Assembly (NCBI RefSeq): GCF_038025025.1
Contig: NW_027117343.1
Coordinates: forward strand, 2,418,001-2,458,242
Reading direction: 5' to 3'
DNA length: 40,242 nucleotides
Source of the DNA: Phyllosticta citribraziliensis
Lineage: Eukaryota
The notes beneath the pieces are model-generated. The model had not been told where the DNA came from, ran no database searches, and saw only the letters and a list, made by a program, of their open reading frames with translations. Below are positions 1,824-21,384 of the stretch, piece after piece (positions within the stretch are counted from its first letter, which is position 1; each line of letters begins with the position of its first letter). The translations under genes were made by a program, and so were the position numbers.

Positions 1824-2055
1824 GAGACTTTTCGGGTGGGACGCGGTCCGTGCGCGCTAGCGGCTTACCTAGCGCGACCGCTTAATTTCTTCCTTTTCTA
1901 CCGCTCAACTTTCGAGTCTCTGCACTTTCTCTTCATCCTCTCCATCGCAAACCCCCAGGGCCTCTTCCGCCACTTCGCGCATCTTTGCCGACGGAGAGGC
2001 CCTTCTTCAACTCTTCTTTCGTGTAAGTTGCCATTGCCCCGCGTTCTTACCTCGC

Positions 2056-2142
2056 ACCGAGTGATGAGAAATTCTTATCAACGAACAATCCAACTCTTAT
2101 TCCTCCATGAGGATTCACAAGCTCTAGAATTACCCTGACCGC
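2056..2142 (+). ncRNA. Box C/D snoRNA, U45/SNORD45-like (18S guide) with a second guide to the 25S A-loop region
   Basis: Box C GTGATGA 2061-2067, D' CTTA 2096-2099, C' ATGAGGA 2107-2113, D CTGA 2135-2138. D guide AGCTCTAGAATTACC (2120-2134) is the 15-nt reverse complement of 18S GGUAAUUCUAGAGCU, in the same register as human U45 (Am159). D' guide GAACAATCCAAC (2083-2094) complements 25S GUUGGAUUGUUC. Confidence 0.9.
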
Positions 2143-2398
2143 GCTTCATGCGGACTTCGCACATCACAAATCTCTTGGTCGAGTCAGAAGCTAATTCGCC
2201 ACTCAGCATGCTCTAGTACTTGTTCTTCGTTCAACGCGCTCGACGCGTCTCAATTCACGCTTCCCGCTGCTGCCAGCTTGGAACTCGCACCTGTCGGCTA
2301 GAATGTTGGTTGGACATTGTGGGTTCCATGACTCGGGCTTGCGACCGCTTTGAAAATTGCATTAAAAGGTTGGTACCACTTGTCTATTTCATGGATAC

Positions 2399-2497
2399 GC
2401 TGGGAGTGATGATCTACCGACCCGGAAAGGCATTCCTCAATCTGAACACATGTTGTCGAATCTGTCGTTAAAAGTTTCAGCCTTGTCTGACCCAAGC
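2399..2497 (+). ncRNA. snR41: Box C/D snoRNA snR41-like (18S Gm1126 equivalent)
   Basis: Box C GTGATGA 2406-2412, D' CTGA 2442-2445, D CTGA 2487-2490, terminal stem GCTGGG/CCCAAGC. D guide AAGTTTCAGCCTTG (2472-2485) complements 18S CAAGGCUGAAACUU; the D+5 rule gives the first G of AAGG, the yeast snR41 target. D' guide AGGCATTCCTC complements 18S GAGGAAUGCCU. It is first in the conserved snR41-snR70-snR51 order. Confidence 0.88.
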
Positions 2498-2594
2498 AAT
2501 CATCCATTTTTTTATTAAACGAATGATTGAAAAGCATTAGCTAACTCGGCTTTGCCGCAGGTACTACTCCCCTCGCACCTTCACCGTACCACCT

Positions 2595-2737
2595 CTCGCA
2601 TATCATGAGGAAATTTGAACGAACGGGCGGACAGACTGTGCAGCTCTTGGACGACACCCGTTAAAAACAAGGCGTACAAACCTTGGGGTGTTGCGCTAAG
2701 GGATTGCTTGTTGAGAATTCGTCAGCTGATCCGCGAG
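2595..2737 (+). ncRNA. snR70: Box C/D snoRNA snR70-like (18S Cm1639 equivalent, decoding site)
   Basis: Box C ATGAGGA 2605-2611; guide ACGGGCGG (2623-2630) before D' CAGA (2632-2635) complements 18S CCGCCCGU, and D'+5 is the C after CCG. Long internal hairpin ACACCC..CAAGG/CCTTG..GGGTGT, D CTGA 2726-2729, terminal stem CTCGC/GCGAG. Middle position of the cluster. Confidence 0.85.
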
Positions 2738-2828
2738 CGATTGCACGGCATCTGTTGTTCAGGTTTTGGAGCTTCGAAACTAACAATCAAGATGCAGGTA
2801 CGATTCACGACGCTTTTCTTCACCTACG

Positions 2829-2996
2829 GCCATCTTTTATGATGATCACTATTCACACTGTTTGATCCGGCTTCGTGTAACGAACGTTGCCGGGCATGAG
2901 ATTTAAACACTGAAAATTCTGATTTAATGAGGTTCGTTGCCCTTCGCTCACGACAAATATACCTGCTGACATGCGACACAGCCTGAATACGATGGC
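2829..2996 (+). ncRNA. snR51: Box C/D snoRNA snR51-like (25S Um2729 and 18S Am100 equivalents), interrupted by a predicted internal intron 2932-2981
   Basis: Box C ATGATGA 2839-2845. Guide TATTCACACTG (2850-2860) with D' TTGA 2862-2865 complements 25S CAGUGUGAAUA. Hairpin CCGGC/GCCGG 2867-2893. Guide CTGATTTAATGAG|C complements 18S GCUCAUUAAAUCAG. D box CTGA 2983-2986 follows the guide only after splicing out 2932-2981. Terminal stem GCCATC (2829-2834)/GATGGC (2991-2996). Confidence 0.88.
2932..2981 (+). other. Predicted 50-nt spliceosomal intron nested inside snR51, itself inside host intron 2798-3065
   Basis: Donor GTTCGT at 2932, branch GCTGAC 2965-2970, acceptor CAG 2979-2981. Its removal joins ...TTTAATGAG to CCTGA, restoring the exact D+5 register on 18S A100. 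Confidence 0.78.
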
Positions 2997-3137
2997 TTTG
3001 GCCGCAGCTTTTTGCAAGTTTTGTTTGACGTCAGAGCTTGCGCTGACCCATGTGCGTCGCTGCAGATACCCAGCATGGATTTACGCCGTTCTTTCGATTA
3101 TGAGTAAGTCTACCCGTTTGCTTTCAAGATGCACTTG

Positions 3138-3225
3138 GCTTCCTGATGAACCGAATATTCGCTGTGTTCTTCCTGAGACACGACGTTGAAGAAAAAAATA
3201 ATATTCACCTTGGAGAACTGAAACA
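3138..3225 (+). ncRNA. Box C/D snoRNA, U55/SNORD55-like (25S) with a second guide to 5.8S rRNA
   Basis: Box C CTGATGA 3143-3149. D' guide TTCGCTGTGTTCTTC (3158-3172) with CTGA 3173-3176 pairs with 5.8S GAAGAACGCAGCGAA (one G-U). C' TTGAAGA 3186-3192. D guide TTCACCTTGGAGA (3204-3216) with CTGA 3218-3221 pairs with 25S UCUCCAAGGUGAA in the U55 register. Distal stem AGATGCA/TGCATCT. Confidence 0.88.
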
Positions 3226-3631
3226 CTTCCATCTCTGCATCTCTGAAAACTCGCTGTCGTTAGTTTCAGCTGCTGATTGGTCAACAGTACCCATATCGCT
3301 GGATAGAACAAGTAGATAGCAAATGCAAGGATTTGAGCTGTAAATTATCGTGCTATGAACATGACTCGCAACGTGAAGTAGACTCCCTCGGCAAGGCTTG
3401 ATACAAATATGCTCGACAGATAGCTTTGATACGCGTCCAACACATGGTGAAGCAGACTCGAGGTGTTGGTGCCAAATTTGTGTTGCTCCCCGACAGCTCG
3501 CTGGCGGGTGATCGGCGACGGGCAAGCGAACAGTTGCTGGCAACCTGAAAGGAGGACGCAGTCCGCCGCAAGCTCGACCTCTCCATGTCCCGCAACATGC
3601 CGCCACAACAACACATGGCTTCTCCCGTACT

Positions 3632-6600
3632 ATGGAACTCCGTCGCTGGGATGTGATCCTCGCCTGTGTCGCACTCTTCATTGCTTGGGGATACGTCACT
3701 CACTGGGCCCCGTCGTTGCGCTATGCTCCTCACGCCTTCATCGCTGGAATCGCCGTCACGATAGCCGGAACGACCTACGTAATCCTGTCAACCACCCGCG
3801 CACCTCACCATGGCGACATTCGACCGATTCGCGCTCCGCATCACGTTTCCTTTGTTTCTGCGCAAGCGTGGCAAAAGGAAACCGCCTCGCTGAAGCAGAG
3901 ATCCATCTACCGAAGAGAACCGCTGTACCCGTCCTCCTTTCTCGTCTCCGACCACCTCGACAAGCTTCTCGACCTGATACTACGCGACTTTGTACAGAGC
4001 TGGTATGGAAACATCAGCCCGCGGCCGACCTTTACAAATGAAGTGGACAGAGCAATTCGCGCGGCGCTGTCCAGCATCCGCGACAAGCTGCTGGCGGTGG
4101 ACCTGGTCGAGATGACCATATCGCGGCTGGTGCCCATGATAACGGCGCACATGAGGGACTTTTACGAAGCAGAACGTGTCGTGCGTGGCCGGAAGCTCTC
4201 GAGGGACATTACAGAATCAGAGGAGCTTGACATGGCCATAGCAGCCAAGTATCGCGATGGCAAGCTGCACCCGGCGGCTTCTCTCACGTACAATAATCCC
4301 AAGACTGTGCAGCAACAGCATCTGCGAGGCATTGTGACGCGGCTCATGTCCCAAGTTCTGCCACGGAATATGCGAACGAGCCTGGCTGTCAACACGTTGA
4401 TCAAGGAGATTGTTGCTTGCGCGGTCCTCTGCCCAATCATGGAACTGCTCTCGGATCCGGATACATGGAATCAGATGTTGGAGGGGTATGGACGTACACT
4501 GCTACAGGACCGCAAAACAGTGCGAAAGCTCCGAGCTGCCCTCGACGAACACGCTCCACAGTCGCCCAAAAATCCGAACCCCACCTCCTTTCCACGGCTT
4601 GCTCCTGGGGATAACGAACGCAAGTTTGAGCGGTTCATACGAGCTATACGCCAGTGTAGCTCGCTGTCTGATGCCCGAAGAGCTAGGAGTGAGATTGCCA
4701 GTCAATACAAGAAAGAGGTGCGAGTGGAGGGACAAGACCAGCTATATCTGCGTCGCTTGGAGACCGCTCGTCGGATCTTGGATCAAAGGGTTGTCCATCT
4801 CAGCGCCGGAGGTACTGCTGCTCAAAAACCCTCGCTCCAAGTCCCAGGGTCTTTGCCGCGCGAAAATTCAAGGCTGGAAAACGCTACGCTTCAACATGTC
4901 TTGCATGATTCCTCTGGCTTGTCATACTTTATGGAGTTCATGGATCGTCAAGGGCTGATGCCTCTTGTCCAGTTCTGGATAGTGGTCGATGGATTCCGGA
5001 ACCCCCTTGAAGAAGACATGGGCGAAACTGATGAACCGGGTCTTGACCATTCGTTTGGTGGATCGGACCGCGCTGATCTGGCTCAAATCTACGAGGCCTA
5101 TCTGGTCAAGCCTGAACTTGCAGTGCCCGATCATCTGCGTCGCACCGTCGACGACTTCCTCAAGGCGGGCAAGAAGGCGACAAGCGCACAGTATCTCGCA
5201 GCTAGGCGTGCTGTTCTGCAAACACAAACATCCGTATATCTGGCCATGCAAGATAAGCATTTCCCTCGATTCAAAAAGTCGGATCTCTGGTACAAGTGGC
5301 TGGCATCCGACGAAGCTTCTGCAATGTCCAAGAATCTTAGTCCGACCAAAGGCCCTATTCACACCAACTCGTACAGTGGACCACCAGCACTAGGAGCAGC
5401 ACCACCCTCTCTGCCTCGGACACTGTCCAGTCAATCTATCGATCTTCGGCGGGCGGCGGTTTCGACATCTGACCTCAAAAGCGCAAAGCCAACATCAGCA
5501 GGTCCGCTGCGGAGATCTTTGGATGACACAGGGAGACCACCACTGTTCGATGACGACATGGAGAATGATCCTCTGGCGGGCTCGACGCAAAGTGTGGATT
5601 CCGAGTATGATGTGGGCAGAGGGCGCGATGACAATGCGCAGGTCGTCGATGCCATGCAAGAGGCCCTGAACGACATCATGGACAATGAACCTGACAGAGA
5701 TTCTCTTTTCTCTGATGGACCAAAGTCTGTACAGGAGAATGAATCAATGCGGGGCTCATTGGAAATCACTCGGTCCTCATCGCCTGCCTTTCTCAAGAAA
5801 GACTCGAAGGACAAACCGAATATCGCATCCCTTGGACTCGTGGGCGCACCAAAGACCAGAGGTGTTTTTGAAGATGACTTGTTTGGAGATGAGGAGGAAA
5901 AGTTTCTTGAGGACGAAATAGAAGACTCGGACCCGAATGATAACGAAGAAGACGCAATTCATGAAGCGGCCCCCGGCGACCTAGGTCTGGCAGAGGCAAT
6001 TGATGCCTTGACGCTCGAAATCGACCGTCTGTCGAATCAAGAATCTATCGTCGACTCTCTCACGAACAAAGCTGAACTCACAAACAATGCGGCGGAGTTG
6101 AGAATTTTAAGGAAGTCAAAAGCAAGTCTGCAAAGAGAGATCCATCGAAAAGAATTGCAGCGCCAGCAGTATGTCATTCAAGAGAGCGACAACAGTTTGT
6201 ACGGTCGGGCAACTGTGTCTATACAGTCTATCATGGTCGGCAAGGACGAAGAAGGCGGAGAATTCGCTCTATGTAAGTCAAGTTTCTGGTAATTGATGTC
6301 CGTAGCTTACAGTGTCAGATGTCATCGAGGTCCGTCGAGCACCTGGAGAACACATGCCGGCCGCCACCTGGGTCGTTCCGCGACGATACAGCGAATTCCA
6401 CGAGCTTAACAAGCGCCTTCGTTCCAAGTACCCCATGATTCGCAACCTCGAATTTCCGCGCCGCCAAGTGATGCTGAAGCTCCAACGAGACTTTTTGCAA
6501 AAGCGACGAGCATCGCTCGAAAAGTGGCTTAGAGAATTGCTCCTCATTCCGGCCATCTGCCGCAGCCGCGAGCTACGGGCATTCCTCTCCCAGCGTACCA

Positions 6601-21280: not shown

Positions 21281-21384
21281 TGCGTCGGCCGGGAATCGAA
21301 CCCGGGGCTGATCGAGTCATTTTTCGACCTTTGGAGGGAGGGTGAGAATGGCAACGATCAATTTTACCACTAAACCACCAACGC
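21281..21384 (-). tRNA. tRNA-Gly(GCC) with a 33-nt intron (21316-21348)
   Basis: Minus strand reads GCGTTGG TG GTTTAGTGGTAAAAT T GATCG TT GCC A [intron] T CGATC AGC CCCGG GTTCGATT CCCGG CCGACGC A. Acceptor, D, anticodon and T arms all pair; mature length 71 nt; T-run terminator downstream. Confidence 0.95.

Follow-up and report, generated by a model that had tools for sequence, protein, structure and literature searches.

An snR51 orthologue of Phyllosticta citribraziliensis is interrupted by a spliced 50-nt intron and probably lies within a host intron

Introduction

The U3 snoRNA genes of Saccharomyces cerevisiae carry introns, and Canzler et al. are said to have reported in 2017 on introns in the U3 snoRNA genes of fungi. 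These introns resemble the one studied here in being spliceosomal and in lying within a snoRNA coding sequence. However, U3 is independently transcribed, its intron is not nested in a host intron, and U3 is not a methylation guide. Another related system is that of the stwintrons, the spliceosomal twin introns of Pezizomycotina, in which, according to the part of that literature available to us, a U2-type intron lies within another and the two are removed in consecutive reactions.

The snR51 gene of S. cerevisiae is uninterrupted, and the RNA is processed from a polycistronic transcript. Yeast snR51 guides 18S Am100 and 25S U2729, and methylation at Am100 is partial, with the level of snR51 as the limiting factor (PMC3938493). 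The closest described arrangement is that of Luo 2013 (PLoS One 8:e58547, PMC3596301). As set out in the sections of this paper available to us, cluster III is without two interior exons in all Euascomycetes, giving an intron-intron-intron order, and U45- and U55-associated introns have been added to it. The intronic snR51 of the cluster contains a non-snoRNA intron, “intron B,” between the antisense element and box D, which was probably gained once, in the Euascomycete ancestor. Among 42 ESTs, intron I was removed in 18, introns I and II in 14 and all three introns in 10. These ESTs were read as stepwise splicing or alternative acceptor use, and the pair was named “snR51-associated nested introns.”

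We have analyzed a locus of Phyllosticta citribraziliensis for which a first-pass annotation had proposed an snR51 split by its own intron and placed inside another intron, an arrangement that it presented as possibly undescribed. The arrangement is not new, having been in print since 2013 (PMC3596301), and its presence is thus expected in a Pezizomycotina genome. The locus shares with the published intron B the position, the cluster and the three abutting introns, and nothing structural differs from the description in the available sections of that paper. A literature search on nested or twin introns with snoRNAs, and on intron-containing or spliced snoRNAs, revealed no other paper on this arrangement besides Luo 2013 among the texts and excerpts available, and a 2023 review of snoRNA maturation makes no mention of snR51, nested or Neurospora. 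Relative to the available text of Luo 2013, the present analysis adds contigs in which the inner intron is gone and the outer one kept, signal and stem statistics over 92 loci, and two intronless lineages.

The snR51 pair shares with the stwintrons, as these are described in the material available to us, the presence of one U2-type intron within another. In a stwintron, however, one of the outer splice signals is split by the inner intron. Here, the outer donor (2798-2803), branch motif (3042-3047) and acceptor (3063-3065) are all left intact by the inner intron (2932-2981), which is separated from the donor by 134 nt and from the branch motif by 60 nt and instead interrupts a snoRNA guide. 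A guide RNA that would become functional only after its own splicing, still within a host intron, would be a case of layered RNA processing.

Materials and methods

The window, that is, the whole stretch of DNA analyzed, comprises 40,242 nt of P. citribraziliensis (GCF_038025025.1, NW_027117343.1, positions 2,418,001-2,458,242, forward strand). All coordinates are those of the window.

Four public runs (X1, X2, X4 and X17) were compared with window positions 2200-3400. The declared library type of X2 is RNA-Seq; X1 and X4 bear only the label “RNA?”, and X17 is DNA-like. The run data are assembled contigs, in which rarer variants are dropped and RNA ends are invisible. For the X1 inner joint, the “+2” cut reported by the tool places the intron at 2932-2981, i.e., a 2931/2982 joint.

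Relatives were collected by scanning metagenome contigs with the 21-nt guide stretch 2910-2930, which gave 92 loci. The terminal stem was assessed in 62 unique loci as the best helix between the 18 nt preceding box C and the 20 nt following the post-intron box D, with 200 permutations of the partners.

Results and discussion

The region 1990-3300 (forward strand, as are all features of the cluster given below) is a non-coding snoRNA host gene, the Pezizomycotina cluster III (snR41-snR70-snR51, plus U45-like and U55-like introns). Its intron A (2022-2206) was delimited by contig starts, with X1 and X2 contigs beginning at 2207 with loose letters that match 1993-2021. This intron contains a probable U45-like box C/D snoRNA at 2056-2142, recognized by its boxes (box C TGATGA, 2062-2067; box D CTGA, 2135-2138). 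The snoRNA matched no Rfam family at E<=10, and its name follows the cluster description in the sections of Luo 2013 available to us (PMC3596301). The next host exon spans 2207-2368, as covered by an X1 contig (2207-2370) and delimited by joints leaving from 2368. Intron I (2369-2560, 192 nt), defined by a GT..AG joint in X1, hosts the snR41-like Afu_455 at 2402-2492, where RF01860 scored 68.1 bits and the snR41 model 27.1 bits.

Intron II (2561-2797) abuts introns I and III. It starts with GTACTA, carries CTAAC at 2780-2784 and ends with CAG (2795-2797), and its end is supported by the X1 joint 2368/2798. It contains an snR70-like snoRNA at ~2600-2733, with a box C-like ATGAGGA (2605-2611), the guide ACGGGCGG (2623-2630) and box D CTGA (2726-2729). 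The guide and box D are also found in the seven relatives inspected, and the Rfam snR70 model gave no match in 2561-2797 at E<=10. The outer intron III (2798-3065), which would host snR51, was placed by sequence signals: a GTACGA donor, GCTGAC at 3042-3047 and CAG at 3063-3065. Downstream, a short host exon is predicted at 3066-3103, with boundaries set by splice motifs; an X1 contig reaches 3093 and an X2 contig runs through it. A predicted intron C (3104-3287) starts with GTAAGT at 3104, has its acceptor CAG at 3267-3269 or 3285-3287 and hosts Afu_294 at 3139-3224 (RF01506, 75 bits). X1 coverage ends by 3102, and the four runs contain no joint for intron C, nor one for 2798-3065, an absence that reflects coverage only and carries no weight. 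Intron C corresponds to the U55-associated intron of Luo 2013, as far as that text is available (PMC3596301).

The segment 2829-2996 is an snR51 orthologue. Both of its guides align to the Rfam snR51 model, Afu_455/snR41 lies upstream, and the snR70-like guide is found in 2561-2797. The 5′ strand of a terminal (external) stem, GCCATC (2829-2834), precedes box C TGATGA (2840-2845), which aligned to box C of the model. The D′ guide TATTCACACTG (2850-2860), followed by a T and a D′-like TTGA (2862-2865), matches the Rfam consensus and corresponds to the 25S U2729-type guide of yeast snR51; by rRNA numbering, we take its targeted nucleotide to be the U2729-type site. For CD6, the N. crassa homologue, the same site in 26S rRNA is given as the D′ target (Liu 2009). 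The region 2866-2902 contains an internal hairpin (2867-2893) and a degenerate C′ box TGAGAT (2897-2902), assigned by position, with a fold of -15.7 kcal/mol for 2862-2902. The first 13 nt of the 18S-A100 guide, CTGATTTAATGAG (2919-2931), 12 of them identical to the Rfam consensus guide, form the last exon-like segment before the inner intron. This intron (2932-2981) has the donor GTTCGT (2932-2937), GCTGAC (2965-2970) and the acceptor CAG (2979-2981). The last guide nucleotide, C2982, and box D CTGA (2983-2986) follow, and the 3′ stem strand GATGGC (2991-2996) closes the element. The motif coordinates of the first-pass annotation (stem halves, guide, intron signals and box D) were all correct on the sequence. 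Box C TGATGA and the post-intron box D CTGA, the defining pair of a box C/D snoRNA, are conserved in the 62 unique relatives, one of which has CCGA.

The Rfam snR51 model (RF01214), whose gathering score is 44 bits, reached only 34.9 bits in a permissive scan, over 2835-2938. Box C and both the D′ and A100 guides are matched, and the alignment breaks where box D is expected; the genomic score is low because no box D follows the A100 guide in the genomic sequence. A comparison of Rfam scores with and without the intron, which had been suggested as a check, could be made on natural sequences. The intronless loci L039 and L075 scored 46.3 and 39.5 bits, against 32.7-35.6 bits for the interrupted ones (window, 34.9; L049, 35.6; L002, 32.7). 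The Rfam consensus places the target opposite the fifth nucleotide upstream of box D, and the 2931/2982 joint brings back exactly this register, as the earlier annotation had claimed for the spliced form. Judged against this consensus, the D guide follows the box C/D rule (at least 10 nt, target opposite the fifth nucleotide) only once 2932-2981 is removed. Compared with S. cerevisiae snR51 (RF01214), which also belongs to an snR41-snR70-snR51 cluster, the window aligns in box C and in both guides, D′ and A100, whereas it has a 12-nt snR67-like element in place of the A-rich spacer and a genomic score under the gathering score.

Removal of the inner intron was observed in the run data. A 248-nt contig of X1 consists of 2796-2929 and 2980-3093, with no differences from the window and a GT..AG skip of 50 nt. 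The same 2931/2982 joint is present in a 277-nt contig of X4, which comes from a relative (20 substitutions, one gap). Ahead of 2796, this contig has 28 unaligned letters, 23 of which agree with 2341-2368; introns I and II have thus been removed there too. A 301-nt contig of X2 shows the joint as well, although its shorter side is only 24 nt, with a likeness below 95%, and the joint was flagged as weak. X1 has further GT..AG joints at 2368/2561 (192 nt skipped) and 2368/2798 (429 nt skipped), along with an unspliced contig covering 2389-2564. These skips, and the loss of introns I and II in X4, indicate that both runs behave as RNA despite their “RNA?” label. The two X1 joints correspond to the “I removed” and “I+II removed” EST classes given in the available text of Luo 2013 (PMC3596301). 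Positions 2938-2978 are uncovered by any contig of the three RNA-type runs (X1, X2 and X4), yet contigs join across them. In X17, a single uninterrupted contig spans 2423-3057 and includes the 50 nt, with substitutions inside them. Other joints of X17, at depth 13.5 (2491 to 2611, 2633 to 2850 and 2933 to 3192), lack GT..AG and were taken to stem from other organisms or paralogous snoRNAs.

In the three RNA-type runs, every contig that has lost the inner intron still contains 2798-2828 on one side and at least 2997-3072 on the other. Thus, the spliceosome removes 2932-2981 while the surrounding outer-intron sequence is still present. With its GT..AG ends, its branch motif and its joints in three runs, the segment has the features of a U2-type spliceosomal intron. 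The central proposal of the first-pass annotation, that an intron of its own separates the A100 guide of snR51 from box D, is borne out by these joints, the junction it asked for being present in contigs of X1, X4 and X2, and by the relatives described below. The order it proposed, with the inner intron spliced first, fits contigs that have lost the inner intron and kept the outer flanks, but the removal of the outer intron was not seen in them. The same annotation suggested that the order of splicing could switch 18S A100 methylation on or off, a hypothetical consequence of the arrangement.

Among the 92 loci found with the guide stretch, 79 have an intron at the same site, three are intronless, one breaks off after GGTGAG because its contig ends there, and nine are unrelated AT-rich chance matches. 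In the 79 intron-bearing loci, a G is followed by a GT...AG segment and then by C (T in two) and CTGA. When the window is included, the G before the intron and the C or T plus CTGA (once CCGA) directly after it are kept in 80 of 80 intron-bearing sequences, although both lie outside the search pattern. Such an insert with GT, branch and AG at the same position in 79 of the 92 loci, together with RNA contigs skipping exactly 50 nt, makes the observation more than chance. The 59 unique introns (window included) are 46-66 nt long (median, 54), with G1 in 59/59, T2 in 58/59 and G5 in 59/59, and a CTRAY branch motif is found 8-16 nt from the 3′ end in 58/59. Mean pairwise identity is 0.61 for the introns and 0.76 for the snoRNA body. 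The 3′ ends of these introns are AAG in 29, TAG in 16 and CAG in 14, the window having CAG. An AAG acceptor is unusual among fungal introns, and here it occurs together with many different stem types. Within the terminal stem of many loci there is also a YAG, 8-15 nt downstream of the inner intron.

The three intronless loci (L039, L089 and L075) read exactly as the predicted spliced product, with guide, one nucleotide and box D contiguous. In L075 (593-699), all other introns are intact, and the locus contains the full derived cluster (snR70-like snoRNA, AG/GT junction, Afu_455 and Afu_294). These unspliced introns, and the presence of a 63-kb contig in the same data set, indicate that L075 is genomic DNA without the inner intron. 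As the intron is present in all of the loci most closely related to L075, a precise secondary loss is suggested. Two lineages without the inner intron in snR51 were thus encountered, one represented by L075 and the other by L039 and L089.

The terminal stem provided a measure of which box D partners box C. The best helix between the flank before box C and the flank after the post-intron box D averaged 7.11 bp in the 62 unique loci, against 5.44 ± 0.15 bp with permuted partners (permutation maximum, 5.89 bp). When the flank after the internal CTGA was used as the partner, the mean helix was 5.48 bp, no better than the permuted value. The stem sequences vary by lineage and stay complementary (CATCT/AGATG, GCATGCGTCT/AGACGCATGC, CTCTGCA/TGCAGAG, and a 13-bp pair in another group). 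In the window, the 6-bp stem formed by 2829-2834 and 2991-2996 is present in the minimum-energy fold with or without the intron; the pairing of these two segments had been claimed beforehand, and its covariation in relatives now backs it. The covariation of the 5′ flank with the post-intron flank indicates that the functional RNA spans the intron and that box D at 2983-2986, not the earlier CTGA, partners box C. Hence, the locus has the terminal stem of a box C/D snoRNA; since the stem begins 4-5 nt from the boxes, part of it may be precursor-only.

Good support for an intronic position of snR51 comes from conserved signals and from ESTs of other species in Luo 2013. In 58 of 62 unique loci, box D is followed at a distance of 67-90 nt (79 nt in the window) by a branch..AG acceptor, and, with a loosened donor pattern, 51 of 63 have a branch..AG/GT 34-60 nt ahead of box C. 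When the donor pattern required G at +5, AG/GT was found in only 23 of 62 loci, and six of the misses, when inspected, were AG/GTA without G5. Many relatives have such a weak donor, lacking G at +5, at the junction before snR51. The host intron 2798-3065 had been proposed at the outset, and its own donor, branch and acceptor signals stand, with a small correction of the branch motif to GCTGAC at 3042-3047; the abutting intron II had been overlooked. As 2797/2798 is used as an acceptor site and 2561-2797 is itself an intron, the outer donor abuts the previous intron, with zero exon between. Removal of intron I, or of I and II, joins the exon end to a new GTAC (2366-2370, 2559-2564 and 2796-2801), so that every step recreates a donor, a pattern resembling recursive (stepwise) splicing.

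We assign a probability of about 0.85 to the reading that snR51 of cluster III lies in the third of three abutting introns and is interrupted by a 50-nt U2-type intron, as in the intron B arrangement of Luo 2013. The segment 2932-2981 would then sit between the 13th and 14th nt of the 18S-A100 guide, one nucleotide before box D. Its removal would make the guide contiguous with box D and place the A100-facing nucleotide fifth upstream. Boxes C and D and the covarying stem would then define a predicted snoRNA of ~106-118 nt. The snoRNA may be released by trimming, either from the outer intron or from intron-retaining transcripts, and would guide 18S-A100 through the D guide and a 25S U2729-type site through the D′ guide, like yeast snR51.

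Several other explanations of the same data have been weighed. The 50-nt skip might reflect a DNA polymorphism, i.e., an intronless allele or strain in the runs instead of splicing. Intronless genomic versions do exist in other lineages, one of them with its remaining introns intact, and two of the runs carry the uncertain RNA label. However, the joined contig of X1 agrees with the window at 100% identity, and this run has two more GT..AG skips in a stretch of 600 nt. Introns I and II are likewise missing from the X4 contig, X2 was declared as RNA-Seq, and the DNA-like X17 keeps the 50 nt; we consider a polymorphism extremely improbable. An exonic snR51, in which 2798-3065 is not removed in this organism and the snoRNA, its own intron lost, is cut from the spliced host transcript as in polycistronic yeast clusters, deserves more attention. 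The contigs with the 2931/2982 joint keep their flanks in three RNA-type runs at a depth similar to that of the upstream exons, and no outer-intron joint (2797/3066 or 2368/3066) was found in the contigs of the four runs. In addition, the donor GTACGA lacks the usual T at +6, and the N. crassa homologue was called exon-encoded in the available part of Liu 2009. Against this stand the 10 of 42 Euascomycete ESTs with all three introns removed, as reported in the available text of Luo 2013 (PMC3596301), and the acceptor and donor signals conserved around snR51 in the relatives. Contigs drop rarer variants, and a second, AG-ending path joining at 3066 would break a 31-mer graph at 3093, the very end of the spliced X1 contig, which would fit outer-intron removal. 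On balance, an exonic snR51 seems unlikely.

The other alternative concerns the snoRNA itself. The mature RNA could exist as a short form only, ending at the internal CTGA (2919-2922 or 2910-2913), with the 50 nt an ordinary host intron and the A100 guide a relic. Such an RNA would guide two 25S sites five nt apart, a U2729-type site via D′ and a U2724-type site via the 12-nt element ACACTGAAAATT (2907-2918), which is followed by the internal CTGA (2919-2922) as a D-like box. It would agree with the sections of Liu 2009 available to us, where the snR51 homologue of N. crassa, CD6, is a 76-nt cDNA with a 26S D′ target only. It would also agree with Canzler 2018, where the D box of the snR51 family is assigned the target 25S-2724 in Onygenales and some Dothideomycetes, which implies a shorter RNA ending at the internal CTGA. 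Window positions 2904-2924 can be aligned to the 3′-terminal guide and box D of the Rfam snR67 model, and the ACA just upstream of the search pattern is ~90-100% conserved in relatives. The CD6 length, however, is that of a cDNA from an anchored-primer library; according to the same sections, there is no northern blot for CD6 and another snoRNA is represented by an incomplete clone. Our guess is that the 76-nt clone is an internal-priming product at a CTGA followed by A's. The N. crassa table in the available part of Liu 2009 lists no other guide for A100. The relatives likewise speak against a short form: box C flanks pair beyond chance only with the post-intron flank, the G before the intron and the C/T plus CTGA after it are always kept, and the intronless orthologues retain an uninterrupted guide, single nucleotide and box D. 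We regard a short form as the sole product as very improbable.

Under the preferred reading, that of an snR51 spliced across its A100 guide, a role for the 12-nt element can still be envisaged. The segment 2907-2918 and its CTGA match the D guide and box D of snR67, the 25S-U2724 guide that corresponds to N. crassa CD49 (Canzler 2018, Liu 2009); in contrast with snR67/CD49, the element of the window lies within an snR51 orthologue, upstream of and overlapping the A100 guide. The internal CTGA doubles as the start of the A100 guide, and the annotation of 2907-2922 as the D guide of the family (Canzler 2018) conflicts with the spliced model. Judging from these matches, the element could act as a third guide, provide accessory pairing for the neighboring D′ target, or serve as D guide in a shorter isoform. 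A more elaborate scheme, to which we give little credence, has one gene producing two guide RNAs: a spliced long form for 18S A100, and a form left unspliced or trimmed at 2919-2922 for a 25S U2724-type site. If so, splicing efficiency would set the balance between a small-subunit and a large-subunit mark, and the AAG acceptor of about half of the unique introns (29/59) may tune that efficiency. Such a scheme would also reconcile the annotations of Luo 2013 with those of Liu 2009 and Canzler 2018.

The interruption also bears on annotation. Covariance-model scans score the interrupted snR51 under threshold (34.9 vs. 44 bits), and the surveys of Liu 2009 and Canzler 2018, in the parts available to us, list the family with the short form and no A100 guide.

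Elsewhere in the window, a long ORF of 886 amino acids (3632-6292, forward strand, translation table 1) starts ~350 nt downstream of the snoRNA host gene. A tRNA gene (21281-21384, reverse strand, 49.1 bits) carries a 35-nt insertion in its anticodon-loop region, presumably a tRNA intron.
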